Virus record (IMG/VR): IMGVR_UViG_3300014204_000134
Span: 1 to 64,000 of that record
Length of the DNA: 64,000 nt
Source: a virus
Lineage: Duplodnaviria; Caudoviricetes
Strand: one strand, 5' to 3'
Shown: piece after piece, positions 6,885-59,500 of the stretch
How the letters are laid out: every line of letters starts with the position of its first letter
How positions within the stretch are numbered: the stretch's first letter is position 1
The notes under the pieces: model-generated
Databases searched by the model: none
Seen by the model: only the letters and a program-made list of their open reading frames with translations
What the model was told of the DNA's origin: nothing
Made by a program: the position numbers and the translations under genes

Positions 6885-7295
6885 ATTTTAAAATGGTTTA
6901 AAAATAAATTAAAACAGTGGTTAGATATTATTGAATTAGAAGAAAATACTAGAGATAATTTCTTTTCTATAGATAGACTTAATGGACAAATGGCACAACA
7001 AAAAAACCTTATAGATATTAAATTATCTCATAATGAACAACTAATTAAATCATTTCTTGCAACGTGTAAAACAGGATATGATTTAGGAGTATCAAATTAT
7101 CATAAAAATTGGTGTGTTTTTGTCAAACAGGGTAAAAATCAAGATTTTATAAAATTCATTGATTTAAGCGATATGACAATTGAAGAAATAAGGCATTTTG
7201 AAAAACAATTAGATGCAATAAATCAAAATAAACAGAAAAGATATTATTATATTGATGCTCCAATGGGGATTAAAGATCATTTTATGTATAAATAG
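6885..7295 (+). CDS. hypothetical protein (ATT start)
   Basis: Frame open from in-frame TGA at 6876; SD AGGTGA; N-terminus (M)LKWFKNKLKQWL. Confidence 0.55.
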   Translation: MLKWFKNKLKQWLDIIELEENTRDNFFSIDRLNGQMAQQKNLIDIKLSHNEQLIKSFLATCKTGYDLGVSNYHKNWCVFVKQGKNQDFIKFIDLSDMTIEEIRHFEKQLDAINQNKQKRYYYIDAPMGIKDHFMYK

Positions 7296-13602: not shown

Positions 13603-14682
13603 ATGGATTTAAAACTACTTAAAAAACGCATATATGAAGAAGATAAAATTGAAACCCTTCTTGATAGTTTAAATTGTGAACACATTAAAAGTGAACAGAG
13701 TGGTAATTTAATTGTTGCTCAATTACCTGATGGTGATAATAAAAGATCAATTCAAATTAAGAACAACGAAAATTTGACAGCAAATATTAGATCAAAAGGA
13801 ATTGGTGGAAATATATTTAGTATAGTAGGATATATTTTATATAATGCTGCTACATTTGAAGAAGTAAGAGAAAATTTATATCAAATAATTCAATATATAT
13901 GTAATACATTGGATTATGAGTTAGAATATTTTAATCAAGTAGAAGAGAAGAAAACTGATTGGAATTGGTTTTTACGGAATGTGCAGAAAGATAGAAAGAA
14001 AGAATTCAAACTTGATGAAATACCTATAAATAAAGTGTTAAATGAAAACATATTAAACCAATATATAGATTATTTATATATTGATTGGTGGAAAGAAGGG
14101 ATAAATGAGAAAACTAGAAGATTTTATAAAATTAAATTTGATTTACGTACAAATAGAATTATAATACCTATATATAATGAATCTGGTTTAATTGGTATTA
14201 AGGGTAGGTATATTTACAAAGACGAAAAAGAAGAGAAAAATAGTGATATACCAAAATACTTTCCCTTATATAATTTTTACAAATCTATAGAATTATTTAA
14301 TCTAGATAAAGCAAAAGAATATATTTTACAAAAAAAACAAGTAATCATTGTAGAGTCTGAAAAAAGTTGTATTAAAGCATGGCGATGGGGAATTAAAAAT
14401 TGTGTAGGACTAATGGGTGGTGATTTATCTCCAACACAAGTATATATACTAAAAAAATTAGGAATAGATATTGAATATATTTTTATGTATGATAAAGATA
14501 AATTTGATAATGATAAAAAAGAAAAAAATATGATGTTACAAATTAAACAGGTTAGAAATAGAGTAATAAAGATAATGAATGATAGAAATGATTTATTAAA
14601 TATCAAAGAAAAACATTCTCCAACTGATTTAGGGAAAGATATATTTACGAAGTTATTGAATAATCACATAAAGTTAATATAA
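13603..14682 (+). CDS. DNA primase (TOPRIM)
   Basis: RIIIPI...GIKGR...KY...IVESEKS...YDKD. Confidence 0.85.
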   Translation: MDLKLLKKRIYEEDKIETLLDSLNCEHIKSEQSGNLIVAQLPDGDNKRSIQIKNNENLTANIRSKGIGGNIFSIVGYILYNAATFEEVRENLYQIIQYICNTLDYELEYFNQVEEKKTDWNWFLRNVQKDRKKEFKLDEIPINKVLNENILNQYIDYLYIDWWKEGINEKTRRFYKIKFDLRTNRIIIPIYNESGLIGIKGRYIYKDEKEEKNSDIPKYFPLYNFYKSIELFNLDKAKEYILQKKQVIIVESEKSCIKAWRWGIKNCVGLMGGDLSPTQVYILKKLGIDIEYIFMYDKDKFDNDKKEKNMMLQIKQVRNRVIKIMNDRNDLLNIKEKHSPTDLGKDIFTKLLNNHIKLI

Positions 14683-41705: not shown

Positions 41706-41838
41706 TTACCTACTTGTTAAAAATAGGTTATTTTTTGTAATTTTTTAATTATTTTATAAATAATTATTGATTATTTAGTTTAAAAAGAATAAAATATAGA
41801 AAGAATATTAAAATGAAAATAAAACGGAGGTGTTCTTT

Positions 41839-43059
41839 ATGGAAGATAAGTTAGAAGGACAAGAGAATCAAGAAGGACAAGGATTGTTTGAGAAATATAC
41901 GGAAGAGAAAAAGGAAAGGGGTAGACCAAAGATTTTGAAGGATGAACCAAAGTTTATTGAAGGTGAAGGATGGGAACTGCACGATATAACTCCTTTATAC
42001 CGTAATGGAGAATTAGTTAAATATTTTTGTTCTGTTCCGATTAATACTCTAGCAGAAATGAGGTTATCAAATAATATTGTTTATAATGAAAAAGTACAAC
42101 GTGGAACTAAATTAGATAATAAGGGTAACATTGTCGAAATATTCCAAAGAAAAAAAGTCAAAGAAATTTATAAAGCATTAGCAGAAGATCGTCTTCATGG
42201 TAGTGTAATTACACTTAATGCTAATAAAGATACGGGAATACAACTAAATTATGATAAAGAAACTGGTGTATTATCAGGAAATAAACCACTTGATCTCTTG
42301 GATGGCAATCATAGAATTAAGGCGATGGTAAAATTTTACAGTGATTATCATAAAGGAAGTAAAAATACTGGAAGTATTAATCCTGAAATGTGGGAAATCC
42401 CACTTGTTATTGAGAATTTAAGCGAGGCAGATAGCTGTGCACTCTTCAGTGAGTATAGCTTAACTCCTCTAAAAGTTTCCAGAACTAGAGGATTATTCCT
42501 AAATGTGTATAATGCTGGAAATATGATTGTAAGACACCTAATGAAAAATGAATTAAGAGGTAGAATTGACTGTATTAATGTAGGATTAAGAAATGAGTAT
42601 GTTGCTACTTTTGGAACACTTACTAATGCTATTAATGCATATCTTCAACCTGCAACACCACAAGAAGCAGAAAATTACAAGAATTATATAAGTGATTTCT
42701 TTAAAATTCTTATAAATACTTTCCCTAGAGCATTTGGAGAAGTATCAAAAGAAGAAAGAAAAGAAGTTAGAAGTAAGTACTTTGTTATCGAACCAATATT
42801 TATGAATGCTTATATATTTTTACTGAAGAATCTTATTGGCAAAGATGATTGGGAGGGTAAAATCAGCAAACTAAAAGATATAATACAAATTGATGGGTGG
42901 TCTGGAGAATTACTATCCAGAGAAAACCCATATTTTGTCAACAACATTACTAGAGGACAAGGAAAAATGGTTTCGACACGTAGTACTAGTAAACTTGTGG
43001 CTGATTCTATAGTGAATTATATCTTGCATGGAGTTTTGACCGATAAACTTGAAGGATAG
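41839..43059 (+). CDS. DndB/DGQHR-like ParB-fold protein
   Basis: VQRG...ITLN...LLDGNHR...LFSE. Confidence 0.6.
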   Translation: MEDKLEGQENQEGQGLFEKYTEEKKERGRPKILKDEPKFIEGEGWELHDITPLYRNGELVKYFCSVPINTLAEMRLSNNIVYNEKVQRGTKLDNKGNIVEIFQRKKVKEIYKALAEDRLHGSVITLNANKDTGIQLNYDKETGVLSGNKPLDLLDGNHRIKAMVKFYSDYHKGSKNTGSINPEMWEIPLVIENLSEADSCALFSEYSLTPLKVSRTRGLFLNVYNAGNMIVRHLMKNELRGRIDCINVGLRNEYVATFGTLTNAINAYLQPATPQEAENYKNYISDFFKILINTFPRAFGEVSKEERKEVRSKYFVIEPIFMNAYIFLLKNLIGKDDWEGKISKLKDIIQIDGWSGELLSRENPYFVNNITRGQGKMVSTRSTSKLVADSIVNYILHGVLTDKLEG

Positions 43060-43064
43060 TAAAA

Positions 43065-43091
43065 AGGGGAGTACCACTTAGGTACTCCCTT
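43065..43091. terminator. terminator between convergent modules
   Basis: GGGAGTACC-actta-GGTACTCCC. Confidence 0.75.
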
Positions 43092-43094: not shown

Positions 43095-44297
43095 TTATAT
43101 TATATTTTTAAATTCTCCTTTAAACCATCTTTCTTTAAATTCATAAAATTGTTCTGGTGTAGTATTACCGTCTTTTTTATAAATTGCATGAAATAAATTA
43201 TGTACTCTATCACAAAGACATACACCAAGAGGATATTTATAATGAATTTCTAAACATTTATTTTCTAATAATTTTAATTCTTCGTCAGTATATTCGTTTA
43301 TAGTTTTATAAGTTAAAAAATCAAGCTCTAAAATTGTTTCTTTAACTATTTCAGCAAAAGAATGTAAATGATGAATTACATTAAATTTTTCACCAGTTAT
43401 AATACATTTATAATTACAATATTTCATACTATCTTTCTTCCATTGTTTAATTTTATTTCTTAAATACTCTAATAAAGGAGTAATACCACCTTTCCAATGT
43501 CGAGACTTATCTCCAGAATAATATTCAACCATACAATAATGACATCCAAATCCATATAATTCTAAGCTTTTTAATGAAACCTTTTGAACACCTTTATCTT
43601 TATGTTTTTCACATATAAATTCATTTGATAAAGAACTTTTAGCATAATTATCTTTATTTACAAGAATTAATCCATGTGCTTTATAACGTTCATCTACATA
43701 ATCAGAATTAAATTTTAATCTTTTGGAAATTGCTTCACTATTACATTTTTTACAAGGATTATCTTGTTTATGTAAATTCCATAATAAAATATCTTGAACA
43801 CCATATTCAGGATGTAAATCACAAATAAAGTTATATTGCAATTTTTGTGTCATTATATTTTTATATTCATATTCATCTAAAAGTAAAGAACAATTTTTAT
43901 TTTTAAACATTTTTACTAATTCTTCATACGGTGTCTTTTTTATATCTGACATTTTCTTTTTATATTGTTCTGTATACATTGAATATTCAACACCATATTT
44001 ATTTAAACAACTTTCTCTATTTTTCTTTGGTTGACAATCCCAACAACAATCTTTTTTAATAGTATTTTTTTCTTTTAAATTTCTATAATTATTATATTTT
44101 TTAACAATTATCGTTTCTTTTCCCTCTTCTAAACAATAATCACATAAGATTTCAATTTCAGCAGTACATCCTTTTGTTACTTCTTCTATTTTTACTTCAA
44201 ACTCATCATCTTTTTTAGTAAATTTATATCCTTTGGATTCATAATGTTTTCTATTTTTCCCACACCATTTAACCATTACAGTTTTACTTTTTAACAT
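43095..44297 (-). CDS. putative HNH homing endonuclease with Zn-binding repeats
   Basis: MLKSKTVMVKW...YESKGY N-domain; WKGGIT; CIITG...IHHL...CLCDRVHNLFH. Confidence 0.75.
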   Translation of the reverse strand: MLKSKTVMVKWCGKNRKHYESKGYKFTKKDDEFEVKIEEVTKGCTAEIEILCDYCLEEGKETIIVKKYNNYRNLKEKNTIKKDCCWDCQPKKNRESCLNKYGVEYSMYTEQYKKKMSDIKKTPYEELVKMFKNKNCSLLLDEYEYKNIMTQKLQYNFICDLHPEYGVQDILLWNLHKQDNPCKKCNSEAISKRLKFNSDYVDERYKAHGLILVNKDNYAKSSLSNEFICEKHKDKGVQKVSLKSLELYGFGCHYCMVEYYSGDKSRHWKGGITPLLEYLRNKIKQWKKDSMKYCNYKCIITGEKFNVIHHLHSFAEIVKETILELDFLTYKTINEYTDEELKLLENKCLEIHYKYPLGVCLCDRVHNLFHAIYKKDGNTTPEQFYEFKERWFKGEFKNII

Positions 44298-44309: not shown

Positions 44310-44409
44310 TCCTCACAGCAAATTTACCCCACAGAAAAATAAATAAAAAAGAGAGTGCTCTGTGAGGACAACACTCTCTTTTCTCTAAGCACGACTGATC
44401 GGGTCGTAC
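44310..44409 (-). promoter_or_regulatory. structured RNA leader (hairpin + terminator with anti-SD loop)
   Basis: GTACGAC/GTCGTGC hairpin; AAAAGAGAGTGT/GCACTCTCTTTT terminator; loop TCCTCACAG complementary to CTGTGAGGA at the SD. Confidence 0.65.
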
Positions 44410-44430
44410 AATTTTATATTAATTTAATAT

Positions 44431-44787
44431 TTAACCTTCTGTATTACTATCTGTATTATCTGTAGTAGTTATATTTTTCTTCTGCAACGCATCATAAGAT
44501 TCCATACTTACACCAGCTAAAATCAATCCATTAATACTTGCTAAAAATATATCTAAATTACTAGCTATTTGACCATTAAAATTTAACACAGAGAACAAAA
44601 TGCTCTCACTCAATAATACAACCCATAACTTTGTAGGAAAACTATCTACTTCATATTTAAAATAACTACAAATTTTCTTGAATAATAAATCTAATGCACC
44701 TTTGGAAAACTGAGTTATAACCATAATTGCTGCAACCATTCCTGCTATACTACTTAAGGTTTCTAAAGTAAAAAATTGACCATCCAT
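44431..44787 (-). CDS. holin-like membrane protein
   Basis: Three hydrophobic segments; lysis module. Confidence 0.6.
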   Translation of the reverse strand: MDGQFFTLETLSSIAGMVAAIMVITQFSKGALDLLFKKICSYFKYEVDSFPTKLWVVLLSESILFSVLNFNGQIASNLDIFLASINGLILAGVSMESYDALQKKNITTTDNTDSNTEG

Positions 44788-44812
44788 ATTATAACCTCCT
44801 TATTTAACTACT

Positions 44813-45520
44813 TTATTTTGCCATCCTTGATAGCATTACCCAAAATAACCACTGAGGAGTAGCAAGAGAAACATTACTAATATGTGATTCAGGATTTTGA
44901 ATAAGTGGTTTTCCATTAATGTCTAAAATTTGAGTTAATTTATTAATTGCTTCTGCACCTTTTTGTCCCATCCAATCTTCATAAACGGGCATTGACATAT
45001 CATCACCACCGATTAATAAAATTTCTGTTCTTACATCATTAACAAAATCATCCCAAGTTTTACCATGTTGTTGAAAATAACCTATAGGATCGGTATGATC
45101 TGTTTCATGCCAAGTTTCACTAACCCAAGCATGAGTATTTAGTTGATTAATATTTGTAGGATCAAAACTATATCTAATACAAATATCTACTGTTAACCAT
45201 ATTGTTCTATTCCATGTTTCTTGAAATTTTGTTTCATCGGAAAAATTACACATCTCAATCGACAAGAAACGAATATTAGCAGATTTACAACCATGCCATG
45301 CAGTTAAATTTTCAGGTAATATTTGAGTAATAGAATCATAATCTACAAAATAATGTGCTGAAGCACCACGATCTGCATTATGAAAATATGTATTTTCGTT
45401 AGTATCACTCGCATCAGGAGTTGCAGTTTCATGAATTGTTAAACCAATAGGACTTAAAGTAGTTCCTGAATGATTTAATCCATCTGGTAAAAAATCTTGA
45501 ATTATACTATATCCTTGAAT
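44813..45520 (-). CDS. N-acetylmuramoyl-L-alanine amidase (Amidase_2) endolysin, ATT start
   Basis: LTIHETATP, ASAHYFVD and AWH lie upstream of track start 45265; SIEMC, TH, DHTDP; TAG immediately before ATT; SD AGGTGA. Confidence 0.85.
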   Translation of the reverse strand: MQGYSIIQDFLPDGLNHSGTTLSPIGLTIHETATPDASDTNENTYFHNADRGASAHYFVDYDSITQILPENLTAWHGCKSANIRFLSIEMCNFSDETKFQETWNRTIWLTVDICIRYSFDPTNINQLNTHAWVSETWHETDHTDPIGYFQQHGKTWDDFVNDVRTEILLIGGDDMSMPVYEDWMGQKGAEAINKLTQILDINGKPLIQNPESHISNVSLATPQWLFWVMLSRMAK

Positions 45521-45833
45521 CTAAATCACCTACTTGTTGGTTGGTATTATTTGTAGTTGTATTTATATTATTTTGATTTGTCCCTATAGTTGAAACCCCA
45601 CCATATCCACTATTTCGACTATAATAACTACTAAAACCATAAGCAATAGAACCTACTCCATTAATACCTGCTACATAAAAGGCAATCCCTTTTATTAAAT
45701 CTACATAAACAGCATCTATTGGTTGATTTGTAGCATAACGATATGTTATATATGCAAAACCAATTATAAAACAAATCATTAACCCACTAATTTTCATTTC
45801 ATCTGCTGATAAAAAATTTCTCAATCCATTCAC
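45507..45833 (-). CDS. holin-like membrane protein
   Basis: Two hydrophobic segments; precedes amidase. Confidence 0.6.
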   Translation of the reverse strand: MNGLRNFLSADEMKISGLMICFIIGFAYITYRYATNQPIDAVYVDLIKGIAFYVAGINGVGSIAYGFSSYYSRNSGYGGVSTIGTNQNNINTTTNNTNQQVGDLDSRI

Positions 45834-45845
45834 ATTTTCACCAAC

Positions 45846-46889
45846 TTAATAGTAAACTATAAAAGCACTTTTGTATCCAGCACTCTTTATCTTATCTCTT
45901 AATATTTGTGCATCTATTTTATTTTCACATTTACCAACTTGAACTTTATGATATGAATTAATATAATATATATAAGCATTAAAACCCTTATTAATTAACA
46001 CAGTCTTAGTATTTATAGCATTTTTTTCAATTTTATAATTACCTACTTGTACCCTATAATATTTAGACGAAGGAGGTAGTGGAATAGGGTTTTTAAAATC
46101 TAATTCTATTGCATATGCTTCAAATACATATGGCATATTAAAATCTTTTTCATGTCCTTCAAAAAATTTCTGCGACATAAAATAATGTCCTTTAAGTCCC
46201 CAATCATCTCCCCATGAATTACGAACTTTAACAAAACTAGTTAAGGTTATTCCATCTTTATATGTATAACTTAAATTTTTATTATAAGCTAATCCGAGAG
46301 TTGCATGTCCCCCATCAACAGTGCCTTCTGGCATACATAAAAATCCACCATCTTCAGGATGATAAAAACTAGTAGTTACAATTTGAGCAAAAAGAACTGG
46401 TTGATAATGAGATATAGCATGACAAACTTCGTCCCAAGTTTTAACTAAAGAATATCCTTTAATTTTATAACCTAATGCTTCTTCCAATGCCTTTTGTGGT
46501 ACTTTTGGTAATGGTTTTGACATCATAGAAAAAGGCATTGTTTTTTCTAAACATATTCCTTCTTTTCTTGCAATTTCTAATAATACTTTTGGGTACGTTC
46601 CATCTTCATTAAATTCTCCGTCTTCTTCTTTGGCCCTACAATATCCCTCGCAAACACTAGCAACATCAGGAGCATTATTTATTTTATTTTGTGCAGATAA
46701 AGCACCACAAACTGCTTCACTTACGCAACAAGGCCAAACATCTTGATCAAAAATTGGTGGAAACAAATGCTCTATACTAAATTCGTCTGGTATATTCTGT
46801 AAATGCTCATCTGCTAAAGAAAATTTAATCGGATATTTATGAAGTTTCTTATCATATGGCGAAGGTTTACATTTCCAACTTTTAAACAT
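45846..46889 (-). CDS. papain-like (C1) cysteine peptidase with C-terminal SPOR domain
   Basis: DQDVWPCC, GGHA, VRNSWG...WG...G; YRVQVGNY and HKVQVG SPOR repeats. Confidence 0.8.
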   Translation of the reverse strand: MFKSWKCKPSPYDKKLHKYPIKFSLADEHLQNIPDEFSIEHLFPPIFDQDVWPCCVSEAVCGALSAQNKINNAPDVASVCEGYCRAKEEDGEFNEDGTYPKVLLEIARKEGICLEKTMPFSMMSKPLPKVPQKALEEALGYKIKGYSLVKTWDEVCHAISHYQPVLFAQIVTTSFYHPEDGGFLCMPEGTVDGGHATLGLAYNKNLSYTYKDGITLTSFVKVRNSWGDDWGLKGHYFMSQKFFEGHEKDFNMPYVFEAYAIELDFKNPIPLPPSSKYYRVQVGNYKIEKNAINTKTVLINKGFNAYIYYINSYHKVQVGKCENKIDAQILRDKIKSAGYKSAFIVYY

Positions 46890-46901
46890 TAAATTCCTCC
46901 C

Positions 46902-47324
46902 TTATTTTGCAACTCCCCATGCAGCAGTTCCTAAAATTCCAATTAATCCTATTACTGCAATCACAATCTCCCTTTTATTCCACCCTTTATTTAAATTAAC
47001 TTCCATTTGATTATCATTCTTATCTTTTTTTGTTAAATAATTTAAAAAACTATTACTCATTTGCAATATTGAATCAGTATTTTTGGTCATAATATCTTTA
47101 ATATTATTAAAATTTTCTAAAGATGATTCACTATTTTTCATTAATACTGACTCAATATTTGATTGTGATTTTTCTATACTATCTAAACGTTGATTTGTAA
47201 CAGCAAAATTCTTTTCTAATTCATTAATTTTATCTGTATTTTTTTCAACTTTGATTTCTATTTTTTCAATCTTACATTCTAATTCTTCATTATCCAAAGG
47301 GGACAACAGCATCATTCCTTCCAA
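46902..47324 (-). CDS. XhlA/BhlA-like coiled-coil protein with C-terminal TM
   Basis: Coiled coil then IVIAVIGLIGILGTAAWG. Confidence 0.55.
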   Translation of the reverse strand: MEGMMLLSPLDNEELECKIEKIEIKVEKNTDKINELEKNFAVTNQRLDSIEKSQSNIESVLMKNSESSLENFNNIKDIMTKNTDSILQMSNSFLNYLTKKDKNDNQMEVNLNKGWNKREIVIAVIGLIGILGTAAWGVAK

Positions 47325-47445
47325 TTGAAATTAATCACCCTTTCATGGTATAATAATTTCAACTCCTTTCAATGCACATTATTGATAGGGGAGAGGAGGG
47401 GAGTGGTTGGGTGAAACTGCTCCCCTCTGTTTTGTCGAATAATAT

Positions 47446-47649
47446 TTAATTTTCTTTTTTATCTTCTGTTATTTCTTCTGATATTTTATTTTTACTTTCT
47501 ACTATATTACTTAATTTCATAATTTGAATTTGATATAAAACATTCTGTAAACATAACTCTACTACATTAAAAGGCAATTGACTTTGATTAATTACTTCAC
47601 TAATTTTAGTATTAAATTGGGCAATAAAATCAATATTTTGTTCTGACAT
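47446..47649 (-). CDS. small tail-associated protein
   Basis: SD AAAGGAG + ATG; follows tail gene. Confidence 0.55.
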   Translation of the reverse strand: MSEQNIDFIAQFNTKISEVINQSQLPFNVVELCLQNVLYQIQIMKLSNIVESKNKISEEITEDKKEN

Positions 47650-47684
47650 AAATACTCCTTTCTAAAATATTTTTTATATAAATA

Positions 47685-47713
47685 TTGACATTTTTAGTAT
47701 TATTGTTCATAAT
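47685..47713 (+). promoter_or_regulatory. promoter of the Ig-like moron
   Basis: TTGACA-17-CATAAT. Confidence 0.6.
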
Positions 47714-47736
47714 ATAGTAAAGGGAGGGATTAGATA

Positions 47737-48132
47737 ATGAAAAGAAAATCATTTATTATTTTTATTTTGTTGTTATTGTTTACACTATCTAATATATCTT
47801 TTGCTTTTGCTGATGAAAATGAAACAATAGAATTTCCAACTAAATATGATGTATGGAGTACTAAACCATTTACAGTAAAATTTAATAAACAGTATGATCC
47901 TGCTTCACTGGAAGGAAAAATATATGTTACAGATAAAGATAATAATAATGTTAGAATAAAATATACAATAGAATTATATAATAACTCTATTATAATTGAA
48001 CCAGAAATATATTATCCTAAAAGAGGTTATGATTTGGGTGAATATATATTACACATTGATAAAGGAATTAAAGCAACTGATGGTTCAATTCTAAAACATA
48101 ATATAATTATGAAATTTATTGTTATAAAATAA
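47737..48132 (+). CDS. secreted Ig-like (Big_5-type) protein, moron
   Basis: Signal peptide ending AFA; KPFTVKFN...IIIEP...YILHIDKGIKATDG; antisense to the late operon. Confidence 0.7.
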   Translation: MKRKSFIIFILLLLFTLSNISFAFADENETIEFPTKYDVWSTKPFTVKFNKQYDPASLEGKIYVTDKDNNNVRIKYTIELYNNSIIIEPEIYYPKRGYDLGEYILHIDKGIKATDGSILKHNIIMKFIVIK

Positions 48133-48139
48133 TTATTTA

Positions 48140-51100
48140 TTAATGATACGCAGCAACATGTGCTGCCATAATATCATCAGTATATTGTTCTAATAACTGA
48201 ATACAATAATTTATTATATTTGTAACCCAACTTTGTGTTGCAATTTCACTACCGTTAATATAACCGGATAAACTATTAAAACTGCCATTCACATTTAGTT
48301 TATATGCACCTGGGGTAGTTGTGCCAATTGCTACATTGCCTTCAACAATTAAACCATTCTGTAATGGAGTTGTACTAAAATAATAACTATTGCCTATAAT
48401 TAAACTACCAGCAATGCCAATATAATTTTTATTTATATCGTAAGAAGGATAACCACTCCCACTAGTTATACCTGGCGTTAAAAATATTGAAGTGCCATAA
48501 CTTGAACCAATATTAACATTATCAGTAACATTTATCCATACTTCTTTATTAATAGAACCACGTCTATATAAACTTAAATTACCATAATATAAAGAACTAT
48601 TGCTGTATAAAGAATATAAGTTATAGGTTGCTGTACTACTTTGATAACCTATAAGACTACCTTCAATCATATTTATCCATAAATCATTCGCACTTCTATT
48701 TGTAGAAAATTCTCCTGTTACATTTACATTTCCAGCAATATTTAAACTACTACCATCCCAATCTAAATAACTCGTAGAATTACCTATTTTTAACTTCCAT
48801 ACTGAACTATCTTGTCCTAAAAAGAATCCTCCAGTACTATCAATATAACTTGTTTTTCCACCTAATAAATTACCTGCTAAACTTAAATTACCCAAAGTGT
48901 CCGTCCAAAATTTATCTACCCATGAACCACTTTCATATTTTTGAATCACAAATGTTTTATTACTTGAATTAGTATCTAGTAAAATTTTATTAATACTGCT
49001 TGATAAAGTAATTGTACCTGGATTTAAAGTATCACTTTGTATCGTATTGCCAATGATTGTTGATGCAGTTATATTAGTAGAAGTAATATTACTACCTGAT
49101 ATTGAACTACCTGAAATTGCTCCTGATATTGTTGCGCTTGTAGCAATTAAATTACCTGCCATACTGACTCTGAAGGGAGCAGAAGCATAACTTGCATTTC
49201 CTAGATATATGCCAGAAGAATCTACCTTAAAAATATTATTTAAACTTCCGATGGAAATAGTTCCACCAATTATAGAACTATTAGAAACAATAGATCCTGC
49301 TGTTAGCGTACCTAAAATATTTAAATTACCTATAGTTTCATCTACTTTAAAAACATCGTACCAAACTCCACTTATTTGTCCTTGAATTTTAATACCATTA
49401 TCTGTACCAAAATAATATTTAGCATTTGCTTTTAATAATTCTATGCCGGTTGATTTTAAAGATAATCCACCCATTGTTATCCCTGTTTGATCTGCGGTTA
49501 AAGCATCATTATCATTACCGTCTTTTATATTAATACCATACACACCCGGAGCAATTTGACCTGCTGTAAATCTATCTATACCACCATAAACTACTCTCAT
49601 ACCCTTGAAATCATCAAATCGAAGTGAAGAATCATAGGTTTTACCTGTTTCTAAACCCTTAATTAATTTATCTATTACTGAAATAGTTGAATAATCTATA
49701 GTTCCACTTATAGAATCTTCAATACTAGCTGTGGTAGTATATTCTGTATATTGATCTATAGTCTTATAGTCAGAATAAAAATAAACAATAGGACTATATA
49801 ATTTACCTTCGGCATCTATTGTAGTATGAACAGTTCTATATGTTCTGATTGCAAAACCATAATATTTATAATAATCTGTAGTAATGATAGTTTCTTTAAG
49901 GGGTAAATTGCGTAATATAATTCCTCTTGCATCCGAACAAATGGAAGTGTGAATATCATCTTCATAATCAACAGTATAAACACCAGATGATGATCCAACT
50001 GAAATAAATAGTTCAAATCCATCAATTGGGTTAAGATCGTTAGGAAGATATTGCCAAGATAATGCAAGATTCTTTGATGTATCTACGTTGGTGTTATATT
50101 GAATTAGTAGAGAATTTGGAGCAGTTGGTATTGTTGAGTTGAAGAGGGAAGAACCAATGTAATCCCCCGTTTTGGAGCGATCAAGCCAATCTGCTACCAA
50201 TCCAGTAGCAACAGTAGGATAAGGAATACAATCAACTTGAGTATTCCAAGTATTTTCTTGCATAGTATGTTTAATTGTACTCATAAGGTAGTCGTCGCTA
50301 ATTCCTGTTGAACTTTCAACTACCGTACATTTTCCTAAAATTAAATATGCCAACAGACTTGTTGCCGGTATAGATAATTTTTGAATTGGTTCATATAAAT
50401 TTTGATATAAAAACTGCCCTAAAACCTTCGCTTGATTTTCACTAACTATGTAATCATTAGATATTTCAAGTGTTTTTTCACCATATTTAGCAATTGAAAC
50501 TTGATTAGTAAATTTTGCCTTTATAGGTTGGAAACTCGCAATAGGTTGACCTCTTAATATTAAAGTACTAATTGTTATAATATCGCTTGTATTATTTTTT
50601 AAGGTAAATCTTATTTTACTATCTTTTTGTTCAATTGTATTTACTAAATGAACTGTATTAGCAGCAGGAATCGTTGAAAATTCCACTTCTTCACCTTGAT
50701 TATATTCACTAACATTTTTGTGTGCTGAACATAATATAGTAATATTTGTTGCTGTATCAAAACTTATTGCATTATTACCTGATGCAGAATTATTTGTTAT
50801 TTCAAGAGTATATAATCGTTCTTGTAAAGGAAGTAAAGCCATTGTTTGATATTGATAATTTACACCAACTAAAGTTCCTACGGCTAAATTACTAGTAAGA
50901 TAAATATAACCGTTTTCAATATCTATATCACTAATAGGAGATAGTGTTCCAAAATTAGGATCTGAAAGAATAACTACAGAATTATTTGTCTTATATTTAT
51001 ACTCGCCATCATCATCAAGTTCCATCTCTTTCCATAATGGTTTTTCATCTGTAGTAATTCTATTTTCGTGTCCAGCAACAATAGTATAAGATTCATTTTT

Positions 51101-51862
51101 AATTTCCTGAATATTGACATAGTTTTCCGAAACGAGTTGACTAGGGCATTCACTCTTAAATTCACTTGATATAATTATTGAATTAATCACATCTTGATCC
51201 GAATATGTAATACTTAAATCCGAAATATTATCAACTGTGAATGAATGTTGTGAAATTTCACTATCTGAAAAAAATTGTTTGAATTTAAAAGTTTCTTCCT
51301 CGTAGCAAATTACACATAAACAACTTTCACAGAGAAGTTTTAATAACTCATTCCAGGTAGAATATAAATTTAAATCACATACAGGTATTACTATACCCGT
51401 GTTATATATACTTGTTAATTCACCAGAAGGGGTGCATTCTTGGAACGCACGCAAAATAATTTCTTCAATACGATAATTTAATAATACTTCTTTATTTGTA
51501 ATTGCTTTTTTAAATACCTGTATATAAGATTCAGCAGAAAGAGAAAGTTGCTTACCTTTAACTTTCATATTATTTTTATTAAGGAAACCGCGAAAAATTT
51601 CCGAATAAGTATTGTTATACCCTGCAAGAATTTTAACTTTAGTTTTTGATAAATCTGAATTAAAATATCCAGTTGAATTATCTACTGTTAATGATGCTGT
51701 GCTTGGATCAATATTAGATAATATATAGTTACTTCCTGTAGTTTGGATAGTAACCTCAATTGATAAAACATAATCCGATATATCAGTTGCAAATGTATCT
51801 CCAATTAATACTTGATAGTTTTTTATTTTAAAAGTTTTTGCTGTTTCAGTTTGTATTGTCAA
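48140..51862 (-). CDS. minor tail / baseplate-fibre protein
   Basis: 1240 aa after distal-tail and TMP genes; SIAKYG...ISNDYI hub-like part; Gly/Ser/Thr beta-repeat C-half. Confidence 0.75.
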   Translation of the reverse strand: MTIQTETAKTFKIKNYQVLIGDTFATDISDYVLSIEVTIQTTGSNYILSNIDPSTASLTVDNSTGYFNSDLSKTKVKILAGYNNTYSEIFRGFLNKNNMKVKGKQLSLSAESYIQVFKKAITNKEVLLNYRIEEIILRAFQECTPSGELTSIYNTGIVIPVCDLNLYSTWNELLKLLCESCLCVICYEEETFKFKQFFSDSEISQHSFTVDNISDLSITYSDQDVINSIIISSEFKSECPSQLVSENYVNIQEIKNESYTIVAGHENRITTDEKPLWKEMELDDDGEYKYKTNNSVVILSDPNFGTLSPISDIDIENGYIYLTSNLAVGTLVGVNYQYQTMALLPLQERLYTLEITNNSASGNNAISFDTATNITILCSAHKNVSEYNQGEEVEFSTIPAANTVHLVNTIEQKDSKIRFTLKNNTSDIITISTLILRGQPIASFQPIKAKFTNQVSIAKYGEKTLEISNDYIVSENQAKVLGQFLYQNLYEPIQKLSIPATSLLAYLILGKCTVVESSTGISDDYLMSTIKHTMQENTWNTQVDCIPYPTVATGLVADWLDRSKTGDYIGSSLFNSTIPTAPNSLLIQYNTNVDTSKNLALSWQYLPNDLNPIDGFELFISVGSSSGVYTVDYEDDIHTSICSDARGIILRNLPLKETIITTDYYKYYGFAIRTYRTVHTTIDAEGKLYSPIVYFYSDYKTIDQYTEYTTTASIEDSISGTIDYSTISVIDKLIKGLETGKTYDSSLRFDDFKGMRVVYGGIDRFTAGQIAPGVYGINIKDGNDNDALTADQTGITMGGLSLKSTGIELLKANAKYYFGTDNGIKIQGQISGVWYDVFKVDETIGNLNILGTLTAGSIVSNSSIIGGTISIGSLNNIFKVDSSGIYLGNASYASAPFRVSMAGNLIATSATISGAISGSSISGSNITSTNITASTIIGNTIQSDTLNPGTITLSSSINKILLDTNSSNKTFVIQKYESGSWVDKFWTDTLGNLSLAGNLLGGKTSYIDSTGGFFLGQDSSVWKLKIGNSTSYLDWDGSSLNIAGNVNVTGEFSTNRSANDLWINMIEGSLIGYQSSTATYNLYSLYSNSSLYYGNLSLYRRGSINKEVWINVTDNVNIGSSYGTSIFLTPGITSGSGYPSYDINKNYIGIAGSLIIGNSYYFSTTPLQNGLIVEGNVAIGTTTPGAYKLNVNGSFNSLSGYINGSEIATQSWVTNIINYCIQLLEQYTDDIMAAHVAAYH

Positions 51863-51877
51863 ATATAAGTATCACCT

Positions 51878-52249
51878 CTATTCTTCTTCTAGTGTAAATG
51901 ACATAGTATAATAAGGAGTAAAACTAGAATCGCATATTTCTTCTAAATCTATAGTGTCGTTAGTAATTTGTGTCGTATAACTACTACTACTCGTAGGGTA
52001 TCCGGTAAATGTAATTGAATTTGAAGAAGTAGATGTAAAAAGAGTAAGTAAATTATCTTTATTTGCGGAAGATAATAGATCGAACTCTAGTAAAAAACAG
52101 TTTTTTATTATACTAAATTCAGACCACATTTTACCATTAAGTGCTCGAACAGAAGAATAACCTATACGTTTAACCGAAGGTTTGATATTTGATAATAAAT
52201 CATCTATATTAATAGAAGAGGTAGTACTATTACTAAGGGTTATACTTAT
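51878..52249 (-). CDS. distal-tail-like protein (ATA start)
   Basis: VRALNGKMW...MSFTLEE; ATA directly after the upstream in-frame TAA; SD GGAGGTGG. Confidence 0.65.
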   Translation of the reverse strand: MSITLSNSTTSSINIDDLLSNIKPSVKRIGYSSVRALNGKMWSEFSIIKNCFLLEFDLLSSANKDNLLTLFTSTSSNSITFTGYPTSSSSYTTQITNDTIDLEEICDSSFTPYYTMSFTLEEE

Positions 52250-53398
52250 TTAAACCACCTCCTTAATTAAATCATTTTTAGTTATTTTTCTTAATTCACC
52301 AAAATTATATTCTTTTTCATATTGAGAACAAATTATTTTACCATTATCAATATCAAAATGAATCCATGAATGACCTGAATTTAAGTATTCTTTAGCATAT
52401 TGAATTATTTCTATTATTTTATCATCTTGTGGTATTTTGTCCGTTATAGATATTATTCTTATTTCTTTCCAATTATTATTATATAAGGCATACCATCTTT
52501 TCCTTTGTCTTTCATTAAATTCCTCTTTTGTTTCATTACCTAATTTAACACTTAGTTCATGCCCTCCAAAATCACATTCAATATAAATCATTTCTTCTGT
52601 AAATGCTATATCTAAATTACATCTACTAAAAGGATAATTTAATTCTCCACCTATAAGATTATAAATATATTTTTGTTGATTAGAACAAGGAGCGGTACCA
52701 TTTTGATATAATGTTTTTATTTGCTTCATTTTTATTTCAGTATTTTCACAAGGTGTTTTAGTTCCATACTTTGATAAATTAGTATTTACTTTTTTATTTT
52801 TAAACTCTTCTACTTGTGTTACATATTCGCAACCATATTTATTTAAATTTGTTTTTCTTAGTTTATCCAATCCTTCTTTAGTATTTAAATAGGTTTTTGC
52901 TCCATATCTTTGCATGTTTGTTTTTAAGGCACGTTCTTTTGATTCGTTTGTTTGTGAATAAAATTTATGATTGTATTTTTCATAGTTTGTTAATATTGCT
53001 TTATTTTTTATATCTTCATTTTTCATTGGATTATCAACACCATAATTATTCAACCATGTATTTTTAGTTTTATTTTTCACATGTATTAAAGAACTTGTAT
53101 TTTCTACGTTATACTGTAATAAATTACTCTCTTTTCTTTTAATATTTCTACATTCCATACAACAATCTTTATGTATTATACTATTTATATTTTGTTTAAT
53201 ATATTCGCAATATGTTTTAATAAAAACTCTACCACAATAATCACATTCTACTTCAACTTTTATTTCACTGCCAGTTGATAATTCACTAATATATACTTCA
53301 AATTCATCTTTATTTTTTGTATAAATATATCCTTTATTTTCATAATATTTTTTGTTTTTTGGATTCCATTTTACTTTTATAATTTTAGTTTTTAACAT
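52250..53398 (-). CDS. putative homing endonuclease (DUF559/PD-(D/E)xK-like C-terminus)
   Basis: Same N-domain as 43095..44297; KYG repeats; NLDIAF...IYIECDFGGH...W.EIRI. Confidence 0.7.
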   Translation of the reverse strand: MLKTKIIKVKWNPKNKKYYENKGYIYTKNKDEFEVYISELSTGSEIKVEVECDYCGRVFIKTYCEYIKQNINSIIHKDCCMECRNIKRKESNLLQYNVENTSSLIHVKNKTKNTWLNNYGVDNPMKNEDIKNKAILTNYEKYNHKFYSQTNESKERALKTNMQRYGAKTYLNTKEGLDKLRKTNLNKYGCEYVTQVEEFKNKKVNTNLSKYGTKTPCENTEIKMKQIKTLYQNGTAPCSNQQKYIYNLIGGELNYPFSRCNLDIAFTEEMIYIECDFGGHELSVKLGNETKEEFNERQRKRWYALYNNNWKEIRIISITDKIPQDDKIIEIIQYAKEYLNSGHSWIHFDIDNGKIICSQYEKEYNFGELRKITKNDLIKEVV

Positions 53399-53407
53399 AT
53401 AATCAAC

Positions 53408-53505
53408 TCCTAACCATTGAGTTATTCTAACTAAAAAAGAAAATAAAGAAGGAGAGGGTTAGGATTATATTCCTCTCCTTATCAGTACAGTTGCGCTTCC
53501 GTACC
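53408..53505 (-). promoter_or_regulatory. structured RNA leader (hairpin + terminator with anti-SD loop)
   Basis: GGTACGG/CTGTACT hairpin; AAGGAGAGG/CCTCTCCTT terminator; TCCTAACC complementary to GGTTAGGA at the SD. Confidence 0.65.
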
Positions 53506-53524
53506 TATCTTTATTTGTTAAATA

Positions 53525-56500
53525 TTACCATCTATTTTCTTCCATATCCTTCCAGTACCCAAATATTATTGTCGCTAGATCCTTCATTGCCATTTCGTTT
53601 GCTATAATATTTCCAGCATTTACCGAATATGACATATAATAGTTGGCCGGCATGCTGCTTTCATACACAGTATTCTCTATCCTACTAGTCACCGTAGGTG
53701 TTATATTCTCTAATTCGGCAATATTTACATGTAATATACTCCCTAACGTTTGTGTCACAGAATTTAAACTATTTATTATTGAATTACTAAGAGAAGTACT
53801 TAGTCCACTTTGTAATTGTGCCATTATTACAGGTAATTTTTCTAAAACATTTGTTACAACCATAGGGATTGAGTTGAGGGAAGATTCTATTAGTTGACCC
53901 AATATCCCCCCAAAGTCACCAAATTGTGCAATTCCTGTTTCTATAGCGTCTCCAAACTCAGTACCACTAAAGAACGAGAATGCATCTTCGCCCATTTCGC
54001 TTAAAGTACCCGCCCATCTCTCCTGAACATCACCAAACGCATCCGTCAAAGTTCCAGACAAGTTAGCAAATCCTGAATCACTAAATATATCATCCCACAT
54101 TGATTGCTGATTAGTTATCAAATCAACCATTGTTTGACTCATTTGTTCTTTTAGTTTATTAAATACTTCATCAGCAACTTCGCTACTTTCTTTGAGTATT
54201 TTACTTACCTGACCAGTAACAGTATAAATTTTATTTCCAAATTCATCCAATGACTCCGTAAACAAATTGTCAAAACTAAATATATCACTAAATACACCTT
54301 TCAATTTTTCAGCAATTTCAATTTGTTTATTAATCTCTTCTAATTGTTCTCTTAAATCTTCAGCAGTTATAGGAGTTTGAGCCAAATCCACATTAATACT
54401 TGTTATTTTACTATTTATTTCAGTTAAAATTGCATCCAAATCAATATAACCCTGATTAATACCATCTATTAAACCTTCTGTAGTTGCTATTTGACCAACA
54501 ACAGAATCATTTAATATTTGTGTATCAGAGATATTACTAATATAATTTTGAATATCTTGTAAAATTCCACCAATTTGAGCACGGACACCTTCTGCTTCTT
54601 CACTAGTATCCGTAAAAAATCCATCTTCCATTTTATATATATCTTTATTTTCATTATATAAATCTTTTATTATATTAAAATTGGTGATTAAATCCTCTTT
54701 TACATTTTCAAATCCTTCAAAATTATCAGTATTAGTTAATTCACCTATAATAGCTGATATACTATCAAAATCAAAAGTTAAATAATCTTTAGTTCCTGTC
54801 TCAACAGTTTCTGCTATATCCTGTATCGCACTACTATAAGTAGCAACACTGTCTAATAAAGAACCAACTTGATTATTAAATTCAGTAGTCATTTGCTCAA
54901 AACTAGTATAATCTGCTGAATCACTAATAAAATCTTCCCATGCTAATTTTACTTCACCTAATTGTTCAATCATATAAGACTTAGCATTTTCAAATCCTAC
55001 ATATTTATTTGGATCATTCAATTCAGTAGCCATACTTGTAATTATTGATGCAAAACTATTTCTTAAAGAACCAACATTTTCTTTTGTTATTGTATCAAGG
55101 TTAATACTCCTTAAACTATTATTAATATATTCTTGTAATGGTGCTGCTAATGTCGTTGTTGTTTCTGTTGTCGTTTCTGTTCCCATGCCGAAATATTGTT
55201 CTATGAAATTCTTTAAAGGAGAAGCAAATGCTGTTTCATATTTTGCATTTTCTAAATCTTTTAAATCCTGTTCTAGTTTTGTTTTATATTCTGCTAAACC
55301 TTCTTGAACATCACCTGTATTAATTTTAAATTTCATTTCTTCTAAAGATTTTTGTTTATTTAATAATTCATCAATTTTACTTTTTTCTTCATCTATTCTT
55401 TGTTGAATATTATATTGTTGTAATTCTAATGGATCTGTTGGAATATCATCATACAAATGATTATATTTATTATATAATTCGTCAAAATAACTTCCAAATT
55501 GCTCATTAAAATCCATACTAATTAAAGTATCTTTAAAACCTTCAACTGTAGAAGTTAAGTCTTCTAGTTTTTTAATTGCACTATCAATATCTGCAAAAAC
55601 CGAAGCAAACAATTGTGCTTGCTCTGTTGTTTGTGCTAAACCACGATTTAAATCTTCAACACTACCTAATAAATATTGATATTCTTTTCTTGCTCGTTTT
55701 AAAATCTCAATTTCTGCTTCAGTAATTGTACCATTAGCTTCTTTTGCTTCTAATGTACTTATTAGCCGTGATAAACCATTAATCTGTTGTGTTATTTGGT
55801 TTAGAGCAGTTCTACTATCTTGGATTTTTTGTATACTAGCATTATACATACTATCTAGACTAGATAATCCGGTTCTAAAACTTTCTAATAGTTGCTCAAA
55901 TGGTTCTAAATTTTTATTTTTCAAATAACCAACATTTTTAAAAATATATTTTTCAAAATCAATACTTTCTAGACTTTGTTTAAAATTATCACCAATATTT
56001 GATAATAAAGTATTTAATTCTTCTAATGATTTTAGATTGTATAATTTTAAAATATCATTAAGTGCGCTTGCAGCGTTTGCTGCTGCCGTTAAATCAGTAG
56101 TAGTACCAGCAATTAAACCATTTATTGTTTCTAATAATTCAGGAGCCAATTTACCATCTTTAATTGCTTGATTGATAATATCAACTATACTTTGCAATTG
56201 AGCAGACGCATCCTTATAGTCATCTTTTCCTGCCCATTCAGCAATTTGCGCTATCATTTGATCTCTATAATCTAATAATGTTTGAATATTACCATCATTT
56301 AGATCTCCAGCTAATTGATTAAAATCAAATTTCATTCTTTCTAATTCTTTTACTTGACTAACTAAATCATCAATTTTAGTCTTTGTTTTTTCTAAGTCAG
56401 ATTGTAAAAATCCTAATAAATCACTAGGAACATCTTCAAACATATTTATAAAAGAACCATAAGCATTCTCAAATTGTTTTTCAAATTCTTCATCAATTTT

Positions 56501-59500
56501 TGAAGTCTCAATTTTATCTTTTATACTATCTAAACCATCAGAAAATAAACTAATTATATTGACAGCAGGTAATGCCATATCATTAAATACTTTTTTTATT
56601 GCATTTGCTACTTCAATCTGATGTGCTAAGTCTGCTTCTGTTTCAGTATTTTCTCCTGTTGTGTCCGCTGTAGGAGAACCACTTCCATATTCAGACTTCT
56701 TAGCTTCTAATTTTTTTTCTTGTTCTTCTAGTAATTTTAAGAAATTTACTGTTGAATTATATAACTTTACTAACGGATCTGATTTAATACTCTCATCTAA
56801 ATTATCCCATCCACTTGTAATTTTACTAATTATATCATCGCCATATTTTTCTTTTAAATCTGTTTCAATACTGCTTTTTAAATTTGTATATTGAATTACT
56901 TTAGCATTAAGATCTGCTAATTTAGCATAAAGATCTGTAAGAGAAGTTATTTTTGTGGGATCATAATTAGCATCTATATATTCTTGTTGACTTTGAGCAT
57001 TTTTTTCTATTAATTTAACAAATTCACTAATTATTGCTGCTCTATCTTCTTTCGTTGCTTTTGAAATCTGTTCTAATATTTTATCAAGATCACTACCACT
57101 TAAAATTTTATTTTCATAGCTTTTTAAAAATTCAATAAAATCAGCTAAAGTAATTTCTGTGCCTGTTGGTTTTGTTAGGTCTGTTGGATTATCTGTTGGT
57201 TTTGTGTTTATTGGGTCTGTTGTATCTGGTGGTTCTGTTGGTGTCGTTGGCTCTGTAGGTGTTGTAGGTGTTGTTGGTGTTTCTGATATAATACTTCCTA
57301 AAAGTTTAGCTATTGCTTCTCCTGCACTTACAATACTAGTATTTAAAGTCTTACCAACAGAAGCTCCTGCAATAACAAAACCACTACTAACAGAATTACC
57401 AGCATCAATAATTGCATTTTTCATGTCGGTAGCAGCATCTTCTCCACTATTACTAATAGTAGTACCTAAAAGATCCGCTAATTCACTACCACCCGCTGCA
57501 ATTGCTTCTTCAATAGTTGCGCTTATATTTTCTATAGTAAGACCTAATGAATCTAATATAGTTTGAGTTGAATCAACAATTGCTTGTGCAGCCATCATTT
57601 CATTTTGTATTCTACTCTCTTCAAGAATATCTTTTTCTGTTTGTTTTAATTCGTCTAATAATTCACTTACTCTATTTGCCTGTTCATCTAATAATTGTTT
57701 TAAATTATCACCAACAACATTGGCAGCTTCACCATATTTACCTTGATCTAATAAATTTTGTATATTTTTGCTAGTATCTTCTTGTAATTTCTCAACAGCG
57801 TCAAAATAGGCTTGATATTTAGCCTTAAACATTGCTTCAAATGCTTTATCTTCTTTTCTTTGATTTATAGATTCATATAATGAATCAAGTTCATTTTTTA
57901 AGCTTTCTACTTTACTCTTTGCTTCATTGAATTGATCTTGAATTAATTGTGCATATTTTTTTATTTCATTTAATCTAGTAATATTTTTTAATAAATCTGC
58001 TAAATTACCATTAATTCCTCCTAATGCTGCATCAATTGCAGCCATTGCATCTGCAAAATTACCAGCATCTAAAGCGTCAATTGCTTTTTGTAAATTTTCA
58101 AGTTGTATTAATGCTTCAGGGGTTAATATACGTTGTTGACTAATTTCAGTTATAATACTAGTTAATTCAGTCTTTAAATTTGCTGCTGCTGCATCAATCT
58201 CGTCTATAGAACCTGTCCATAGTAATTCATTAAATTTATTTAAAGGTTCTGTTAGTCGTGATATATAAGGAGCAAGTTCGGGAATAGCAGTTATCTTTTG
58301 TCTTAATTCATCTATTTTAGTACCATAACCTTCAATATACTCTTGTGCCATTGCCCAATAATCTTCTTCGCCCCATTGTGCCCATGCTTTCCTTACTGCA
58401 TCAACTGTTTCCCATTCTTTGTCAGTTAAAGTACCAGTTCTCCATTTGTCAAATAATTGACCTATTTTTGACATATTTCCATTATCGTCTATAAATGTTG
58501 CTTTTTTATATAAATCAGTTAATGAAGTAGTCCATAATTCACTATATTGCATTATATCTTCTGTTAGTTCGTTACTTGTAAAATATGAAGTTATATTATC
58601 TTTGATTGCTTTAATTTGATCTTCTAAATCTTTTCTATATTTATCAAAACTTTCTTTTACATTACCCATTTTAAAATCAAACTTTAATCTTTCAAGTTCT
58701 TTGGCAACATCTAGTAATTCAGAAAATTTGTCTTTTGTTTTTTGTATTAAAGCGTCTATTTTGTCAACAGCAGTAGCATCTTCATCTTCAAAAGCACTAA
58801 GAAAATCTTTATATTTTTCATTAAACATAGAATCAAATATACTATCAAATTTTAAAGTTTTTAATTTTTCTTTAGTCTCTTCAATTCTATTATTAAATTC
58901 TGAAACAGCATTTGCAGCTTTTTTAATTAATTCGTAATTTTTAAATGCTAAAAGAAGAGAATTACTATCTCTGATAACATCTTCAATTGTTAAACCATAT
59001 TGTTTTAATACTGCAATAATTTCAGGATCTAATTTAAGTTTCTCAAAATCTATTTTTTCCTGATCAGTTAATGTTCCAGATAAACTTTTACCAATCAAAT
59101 CAAAGAATTTTGTTCCTTTGTCGCCCAAATATTCTTCAAGACCTTTTTTAACTTTCATATATTCAGACATTCTTTCTTGTGCAGCACTTAATATTTGATT
59201 AGCAATATCTTCTGGTGTTCCAAATAAATTAAAATTAAACATCTTATTTAATTCTAATTTATCTAATGCAGAAATTATCTCATCACCTATATCAGAAATA
59301 TTTTGTCCTATTTCTAATTTTTTATATTGTTCATTCATTTCTTTTAATTTCTGAACAGATTGAGTTAATTCGTTATTATAATCTCCTAACATTGCGGTTA
59401 TTTTTGCTACAATTTGCTGTTGTGAATAACCTTCTTTTGACATTGCAGATATAGCAGAATTCATATCTGCTTGTACTTCGGAAGGTAAATCTGCTATTGC

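Follow-up and report, generated by a model that had tools for sequence, protein, structure and literature searches.

Two homing-endonuclease-like genes among the late genes of an uncultured phage are each preceded by a leader RNA that belongs to one conserved, structured family. The window analyzed here is the first 64 kb (64,000 nucleotides, nt) of the 100,452-bp IMG/VR record IMGVR_UViG_3300014204_000134, which has a G+C content of 27%. Each leader folds as a three-way junction in which an outer helix (P1), followed by a U-tract, encloses two hairpins (P2 and P3), and the loop of P3 is complementary to the Shine-Dalgarno (SD) region of the gene downstream. Across the family the helices covary, the complementarity between loop and target is specific to each gene and held in a fixed geometry, and the element is linked to mobile nuclease genes. 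The initial annotation of this DNA had proposed a conserved cis-regulatory RNA before the two genes, and this proposal is borne out by covariance-model matches, compensatory helices and cognate pairing in homologous leaders; every element that it had named is present in both leaders where it had been placed. The outer helix with its three-way junction, the self-complementary P2 loop and the occurrence of the element before nucleases that lack the N-terminal domain common to these two gene products all go beyond that annotation.

A covarying three-way junction

The complete architecture is best seen in the leader of the second gene (leader 2, 53435..53515; this and all other features of the two leaders are on the minus strand), where the order is P1, GATAG, P2, GATAAG, P3 and U-tract. 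P1 pairs 53508-53515 with 53442-53449, encloses both hairpins and abuts the U-tract. P2 (53484..53505) has a 7-bp stem, GGTACGG/CTGTACT, and the loop AAGCGCAA with the palindrome GCGC, while P3 (53450..53479) consists of 8 bp closing a 14-nt loop that contains TCCTAACC at 53457-53464. Eight T residues in 9 nt follow P1/P3, giving the sequence of an intrinsic terminator. Leader 1 (44334..44419) is likewise a full match to the three-way-junction model, with a weak P1 of A/U pairs only, then P2, P3 and the U-tract. Its P2 (44389..44409) pairs GTACGAC with GTCGTGC over 7 bp including one G-U, around the loop CCGATCA with the palindrome GATC. Its P3 (44345..44384) is terminator-like, with a 15-bp stem followed by a T-run that again has the sequence of an intrinsic terminator, and carries the anti-SD word TCCTCACAG in the loop at 44360-44368. 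The junctions of leader 1 lack GATAG, and the second of them is longer, purine-rich and ends in AAAAG. The core of leader 1 folds with -28 kcal/mol (z = -5.8).

Homologous leaders were collected by scanning IMG/VR for the coding pattern of the CDYC...KDCC motifs of the shared N-terminal domain, which gave 115 loci, and the 150 nt before each start codon were read. Minimum free energy (MFE) folds of these leaders agree on a three-way junction: P1 on the outside with a U-tract behind it, and within it the hairpins P2 and P3, the latter with the complementary loop. The junction words GATAG and GATAAG of leader 2 recur among them; in the family as a whole the junctions are semi-conserved, the first (P1 to P2) as GATAG and the second (P2 to P3) as GAnAAG. 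Alignment of 11 leaders with MAFFT and RNAalifold yielded no structure because helix lengths differ among leaders. We therefore turned to covariance models, whose E-values throughout come from a shortened calibration. Model R1 was seeded with three near-identical foreign leaders and a hand-written structure and then iterated. Built from these three other contigs only, it matches leader 2 over its full length (21.3 bits, E = 0.05-0.24), and it recovers new elements elsewhere in the collected loci. Model R2, built from the 13 best R1 matches, scores leader 2, a member of its seed, at 52 bits; with leader 1 left out of the seed it matches leader 1 over the full length of the model (positions 1-72) with 27.2 bits and E = 0.044. 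R2 also matches L006 (E = 0.027). Beyond leaders 1 and 2, covariance modeling picks up three further copies in this phage genome and about 20 in those of other uncultured phages.

In the alignment of the 13 best matches, 96% of the cells are paired and 17 of 18 pairs have changes on both sides, counts that come from model-fitted alignments, which favor the structure. All five measures for this alignment lie above 500 of 500 shuffles, and pairing is only 45-56% when the partner is slid by 1-3 columns. The 7-bp hairpin described as of GTACG type in the initial annotation exists in both leaders, but GTACG itself is not a family feature and was rejected as a conserved motif: other genomic GTACG sites are unrelated, the stem covaries, and what is kept is the palindromic loop. 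A palindrome of at least 4 nt occurs in 13 of 13 distinct P2 loops (4.0 expected), and in eight of them it reaches 6 nt (0.6 expected), with the words TGATCA, TCATGA, GTCGAC, TTCGAA and TAATTA; no 6-nt palindrome is found in P3 loops.

In the U-tract, T makes up 5-8 of the 9 nt that follow P1 in most of the 25 elements examined further below, and 4 of them in three. In eight of the 25 a consensus sigma-70 promoter (TTGACA, 17 nt, TATAAT or TAATAT) ends 2-5 nt ahead of P1, compared with 0.1-0.7% at random positions, and one of these eight is the copy at 84808-84881 of the same genome. Leader 1 has no clear promoter of its own. At leader 2 there is a candidate extended -10 box, TGGTAATAT (53522..53530), which ends 6 nt ahead of P1 and overlaps the stop codon of the 3413-aa gene upstream; we regard it as a lead only. 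The identical TGGTAATAT box stands at the equivalent place in L107, there with a TTGACA -35 element. No conserved -10/-35 was seen between U-tract and SD in aligned leader tails, and a promoter at that position was set aside for want of a conserved box.

No Rfam 15 family matches anywhere in the window, and near the two leaders even a cutoff of E = 10 brings up nothing of significance; the leaders of 17 related loci gave no Rfam 15 match either. Nor did we find a paper in the literature describing such a leader. The family is absent from Rfam 15 and uncatalogued. Several other candidates were considered and dropped. A group I intron around gene 2 gives no RF00028 signal. Rfam gives no signal for a hammerhead or pistol ribozyme either, and the CUGAUCA word is part of a loop and not of a junction. 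A leader peptide started by the second copy of the target was also rejected, since mini-ORFs (open reading frames) occur in some leaders (leader 2, L116) but not consistently. Weak R2 matches elsewhere in the window, at 14197-14277 on the plus strand and 7066-7126 on the minus strand, have E > 1 and were discarded, as they are without P3 target pairing.

Pairing of the P3 loop with downstream targets

In both leaders the P3 loop is complementary to the SD region of its own gene, by 9 bp in leader 1 and 8 bp in leader 2, as the initial annotation had described. The SD-proximal target of leader 1, CTGTGAGGA at 44310..44318, is the exact complement of the loop word, forming 9 Watson-Crick pairs with it, and overlaps the SD GAGGAG. 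The duplex of loop and SD is worth -16.9 kcal/mol, whereas a 16S-type anti-SD paired to that SD gives -10.0. Neither the 9-mer TCCTCACAG nor its complement occurs anywhere else in the 100-kb genome, and shuffled versions of the loop produce an equally long match with P = 4e-4. The corresponding target of leader 2, GGTTAGGA at 53408..53415, overlaps the SD AGGAG and forms a duplex of -12.5 kcal/mol with the loop (-10.4 for the 16S-type anti-SD on the same SD), with P = 0.018 for an equally long match of a shuffled loop. Between U-tract and SD lies a second, mid target. In leader 1 this is an imperfect copy, CTGTGGGG at 44327..44334, which forms 8 bp with the P3 loop, one of them G-U, and a duplex of -15.4 kcal/mol. 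In leader 2 it is the weak copy AGTTAGAA at 53425..53432, with only about 5 bp and -4.9 kcal/mol. The two leaders share their spacing as well: 42 nt separate the end of the hairpin stem from the end of GGAG in each, and the start codon lies at +36 after the model end in each.

The imperfect second copy, which the initial annotation had noticed in these two leaders, is in fact a family-wide second target and often the better partner. Pairing was assessed on 25 credible model-defined elements in 13 loop classes, with P3 loops taken from model alignments blind to downstream sequence. Nearly every element has two targets at fixed positions, with the mid copy 0-15 nt after the model end, typically some 10 nt past P1, and the second target about 20 nt beyond the mid copy, covering 3-6 nt of the SD core in most elements; the start codon follows family-wide at +33 to +39 after the element. 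The mid copy is a better loop partner than the SD copy in about 15 of 23 elements.

The complementarity is cognate. P3 loops score 18.7 against their own next 60 nt but 13.0 +/- 2.5 against the tails of other elements, and the cognate mean, with one element taken per class, was reached in 0 of 20000 permutations. In a blind test with the loops of MFE folds of 90 leaders, scores of at least 20 occur in 12.2% of cognate versus 0.85% of non-cognate pairs. Of the five loops in the present genome, four have their best score with the target of their own gene (20-25 vs. 10-18). Permutation tests on whole leaders were significant (p = 0.002-0.012), but A/T-rich noise and the inclusion of leaders that do not have the element weakened them, and the loop-restricted tests were used in their place. 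Thus the complementarity of loop and SD region is kept in homologous leaders although the sequences differ, and dozens of them follow the same logic with different words. For example, the loop word TACTCCTACA of L096 faces the targets TGTAGGAGTA and TGTAGGAGGA, CTCCACACAT of L116 faces two copies of ATGTGTGGAG, the matches of L107 span 12 bp and 9 bp, and CCTCCAC of L079 faces GTGGAGG and TGGGGG. Where a mismatch interrupts a run of Watson-Crick pairs it is U-G, in three independent cases, and never A-C. In L099, CCTATCC pairs with GGGTAGG and with GGATGGG via different G-U positions, which argues for RNA pairing rather than DNA repeats.

Two further kinds of leader were encountered. In a related class (L016, L035, L070, L091, L094, L119, L121, L128) the P2 loop is T-loop-like and palindromic, GTTGCAAA or GTTCGAAA. 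In this class a conserved TTCCCATTT comes after hairpin 2, and a single 6-8-nt target lies immediately 5' of the SD and not on it (e.g. CCGATTA with TAATCGG). In variant leaders (L020, L039, L092, L096, L101, L111, L116) a terminator-like outer helix surrounds one small hairpin, often TAGGG-TAGC-TCCCTA; the anti-SD word here is a single-stranded junction segment in place of a P3 loop, again with two downstream targets.

Nuclease genes and genomic setting

Gene 1 (43095..44297, minus strand) encodes a 400-aa and gene 2 (52250..53398, minus strand) a 382-aa homing-endonuclease-like protein. The two proteins have in common a roughly 100-aa N-terminal domain whose cysteines are arranged as CxxC...CCxxC and which is zinc-ribbon-like in appearance (45% identity, E = 7e-22), and both match phrog_12131, 'homing endonuclease'. 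A shared N-terminal domain joined to different nuclease domains, as initially annotated, holds at the level of the family, in which database relatives with this domain carry HNH, DUF559, MTES_1575 or HNH_2 nuclease domains. For the window proteins themselves the nuclease motifs are recognized by eye only: an HNH-like motif at the C-terminus of the gene 1 protein, in which a Pfam search found no domain, and a PD-(D/E)xK-like one at the C-terminus of the gene 2 protein, which also has DUF7487 repeats. The domain is found as well in homing endonucleases of cultured phages, namely Geobacillus phage E3, Lactococcus phage AM1 and T4-like Salmonella and Klebsiella phages. R2 found no match in five cultured phages with the domain (E3, AM1, Perkons, Goe17 and MT835481), whose leaders differ. 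In Geobacillus virus E3 (L010, region 54802-55074) the ORF with the N-terminal domain is unannotated and follows a simple local hairpin, CCTCCT...AGGGAGG, that captures its SD; the same problem is solved there by other means.

The three additional copies in this genome lie beyond the window on the minus strand and are all R2 matches. The first (69778-69857) precedes a 467-aa DUF4379 zinc-finger nuclease-like ORF. The second (84808-84881) precedes a 452-aa DUF4046 ORF and has a perfect TTGACA-17-TATAAT 5 nt ahead of P1. The third (86805-86883) precedes an unannotated 154-aa ORF, and its SD-like target is, oddly, about 18 nt ahead of the ATG. A third ORF with the N-terminal domain (L002, 68033-68311, minus strand; 47% identity) starts about 25 nt past the stop codon of the DUF4379 ORF and has no leader of its own, so that two nuclease-like genes appear to stand under one leader. 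Elsewhere the element precedes a GIY-YIG/NUMOD endonuclease (L070), DUF4379 proteins (L114, L062), DUF7487 proteins and unannotated proteins, in a census that is biased because the loci were selected via one protein domain. The element is therefore not tied to the shared N-terminal domain.

The late genes of the phage are on the minus strand and include a 3413-aa tape-measure-like ORF, a 1240-aa tail-fiber protein and a lysis cluster; a megablast search of cultured phages with the 11-kb region gave no match. Gene 2 is flanked by the tape-measure-like ORF (53525-63766, minus strand) and by a downstream frame (51878-52249, minus strand) that is open from the gene 2 stop codon on, 41 codons ahead of its first ATG. 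A nuclease of Lactococcus phage AM1 that has this N-terminal domain lies between two ORFs both annotated as tape measure protein. The arrangement may represent a recurrent insertion site or a split gene. No relatives of the 83-aa ORF downstream were found, so the limits of the inserted cassette could not be read from an empty site. At 43065-43091 a bidirectional terminator-like palindrome separates the end of gene 1 from a convergent DndB-like gene (41830-43059, plus strand).

Other RNA features were seen among the collected loci. A group I intron match (RF00028, 72.6 bits) lies at L052:7358-7745 (minus strand), and other nucleases with the N-terminal domain are inside or just after intron sequence. 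The leaders of L014, L028, L048, L050, L056, L060, L068, L098, L102 and L125 have a common ...CCAAGAGTCCGC... string that resembles the 3' portion of a different structured RNA. The phage contig L048 also has an abiF RNA match (RF03085, 48 bits) at 2227-2263 (plus strand).

Possible functions and comparison with known systems

We think it probable that the element works in cis as a double brake, with P1 and the U-tract attenuating transcription and the P3 loop masking the SD, which together would keep the nuclease scarce. P1 and the U-tract would act as an intrinsic terminator or attenuator, letting few transcripts reach the nuclease ORF, whether these start at the element's own promoter or in the upstream late genes. 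In transcripts that read through, the P3 loop would pair with the SD-proximal copy as a pseudoknot and compete with the 30S subunit, given that the loop-SD duplex is predicted to be stronger than the SD/anti-SD duplex; the loop would thus behave as a gene-specific extended anti-SD. A selfish nuclease gene would thereby be insulated and expressed at a very low level, largely irrespective of where it has inserted. Termination, translational repression and any role of the mid copy are in this scheme deduced from sequence. The antitermination switch that the initial annotation had offered as an option does not fit: in every member both targets lie 3' of the U-tract and are transcribed after the termination decision, and therefore they cannot compete with the terminator helix.

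Several points weigh against the double brake. The P1 helix of leader 1 is weak and A/U throughout, and the pair counts come, as said, from fitted alignments. An efficient terminator in leader 2 would be polar on the tail genes downstream of gene 2, after which we found no convincing promoter. The mid copy is often the better partner and is made before the SD copy, which might then stay unpaired by default, and the target of the related class, being 5' of the SD, could equally suit activation. Finally, a simple constitutive mask of the SD does not explain why there are two targets, and it leaves the palindromic P2 loop unexplained as well.

Both features would find a place if the leader were also a free small RNA of about 80 nt, started at the promoter before P1 and ended by P1 and the U-tract, that acted in trans as a dimer kissing through P2. 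The P3 loop in cis would then occupy the mid copy and that of the partner molecule the SD copy, giving dose-dependent repression as in plasmid copy-number antisense control. The palindromes in all 13 distinct P2 loops, eight of them with a 6-nt palindrome, against P3 loops without one, are in keeping with such a dimer, as are the two targets per element at fixed spacing, the consensus promoter just before P1 in eight of 25 elements, and loop specificities that are orthogonal within the genome. However, accumulation of the short RNA and its dimerization are hypothetical, neither leader 1 nor leader 2 has a clear promoter of its own, leader 2 has a mid copy that is close to degenerate, the related class has palindromic loops yet only one target, and pairing in cis is always kinetically favored; we consider this scheme possible but doubtful. 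It seems unlikely that the pseudoknot activates or tunes translation, either with the loop holding the mid copy and leaving the SD single-stranded, or as an enhancer or standby platform beside the ribosome-binding site (RBS), in the manner of the repZ and repA pseudoknots compared below. The mid copy is indeed often the stronger and earlier partner, and the target of the related class is just 5' of the SD and not on it. Against this, the SD copy is the better partner in leader 1 (-16.9 vs. -15.4 kcal/mol) and in leader 2 (-12.5 vs. -4.9 kcal/mol), 3-6 nt of the SD core lie under the SD-proximal target in most members with the three-way junction, and selfish nuclease genes are generally kept low (PMC2988022).

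A regulated switch, in which a protein (the nuclease itself, a phage factor or a host factor) or a small ligand at the junction would set the loop on the mid copy (ON) or on the SD copy (OFF), or would govern P1 formation, strikes us as quite unlikely. One loop with two mutually exclusive partners and the semi-conserved junctions GATAG and GAnAAG speak for it, and the succession of promoter, structured leader with terminator and then RBS is the layout of riboswitch and attenuator leaders. Yet invariant nucleotides are few for a ligand pocket, no Rfam riboswitch matches, and the downstream genes belong to unrelated nuclease families, which makes a single autoregulatory protein domain unlikely. 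We attach very little probability to the repeats being DNA operators, two direct and one inverted, bound by the nuclease or a repressor, or to a chance resemblance between a pyrimidine-rich terminator loop and a purine-rich SD. Operators have a precedent in the autorepression of I-TevI (PMC2988022), and the repeats start about 20 bp apart, roughly two turns of DNA. However, one copy invariably forms part of the loop of a helix with RNA covariation, the copies differ in ways that leave a G-U pair and never an A-C mismatch, and the downstream proteins have different DNA-binding domains. As for chance, any CCUCC-like loop fits any SD to some extent, but cognate loops beat non-cognate ones although every target contains an SD, and the probabilities for shuffled loops are 4e-4 and 0.018.

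Homing endonucleases are among the commonest selfish genes of large phages, and their regulation is known almost only from T4-type phages. The covarying RNA family described here stands before nucleases from several unrelated families and recurs in many uncultured low-GC phages, the present genome alone having five copies. This suggests a portable regulatory cassette that lets nuclease genes insert into essential operons at little cost. The family offers a comparative data set with many natural compensatory variants of a loop-RBS pseudoknot and a source of putative, naturally orthogonal translational repressors, and it raises the question of RNA dimerization via a palindromic loop. In genome annotation, the model can point out mobile nuclease genes along with their true start codons. 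If the leaders did form a dimer module, each mobile nuclease would have its own orthogonal, dose-sensing, antisense-like repressor on the same strand; to our knowledge, such control is known from plasmid copy-number systems and not from homing endonucleases.

Parts of this arrangement recall other systems. In the leader of the IS200 transposase, an upstream terminator blocks impinging transcription and a separate stem-loop occludes the RBS. The two cases would be alike in placing two brakes on a selfish gene, a terminator ahead of the ORF and an RNA that occludes the RBS, but IS200 uses two separate simple hairpins without a junction, pseudoknot or palindromic loop, and its gene encodes a transposase and not a phage nuclease. 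The repZ and repA leader pseudoknots of IncI-alpha and IncB plasmids activate translation, need translation of a leader peptide and are blocked by an antisense RNA. There, too, a hairpin loop pairs with bases at or beside the RBS of the downstream gene; however, activation, dependence on a leader peptide and an antisense RNA were not found in the present family, in which the pairing covers the SD core. Hairpins with palindromic loops mediate kissing-loop dimerization, as in the dimerization initiation site (DIS) of HIV-1. P2 resembles these in its loop of 7-8 nt with a self-complementary word of 4-6 nt, and in leader 2 the loop, AAGCGCAA, shares even the flanking purines, although the context is unrelated and dimerization of the present RNA is hypothetical.

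The closest parallel in function is found in T-even phages, in which the homing endonuclease genes I-TevI, I-TevII, I-TevIII, segB and Aeh1 mobE have RBS-sequestering hairpins that are relieved by nested late promoters (PMC2988022). Terminators lie near mobE and segF, I-TevI represses its own promoter, and selfish nuclease genes are generally held at low expression (PMC2988022). The present element would resemble these in hiding the RBS of a selfish nuclease gene among phage genes by RNA in cis, with terminators limiting transcripts further. There is, however, no sequence or structural homology between the two. In T-even phages the SD is part of a simple local hairpin, which is relieved when a late promoter fires inside it, whereas the SD partner of the present element is a hairpin loop about 50 nt upstream, across the U-tract and inside a conserved junction, which would make a pseudoknot and not a nested stem. 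The present element further differs in its pair of targets, in the palindrome of its other hairpin loop and in the U-tract that follows P1. By analogy, the purpose common to both would be to keep a mobile nuclease low and insulated.

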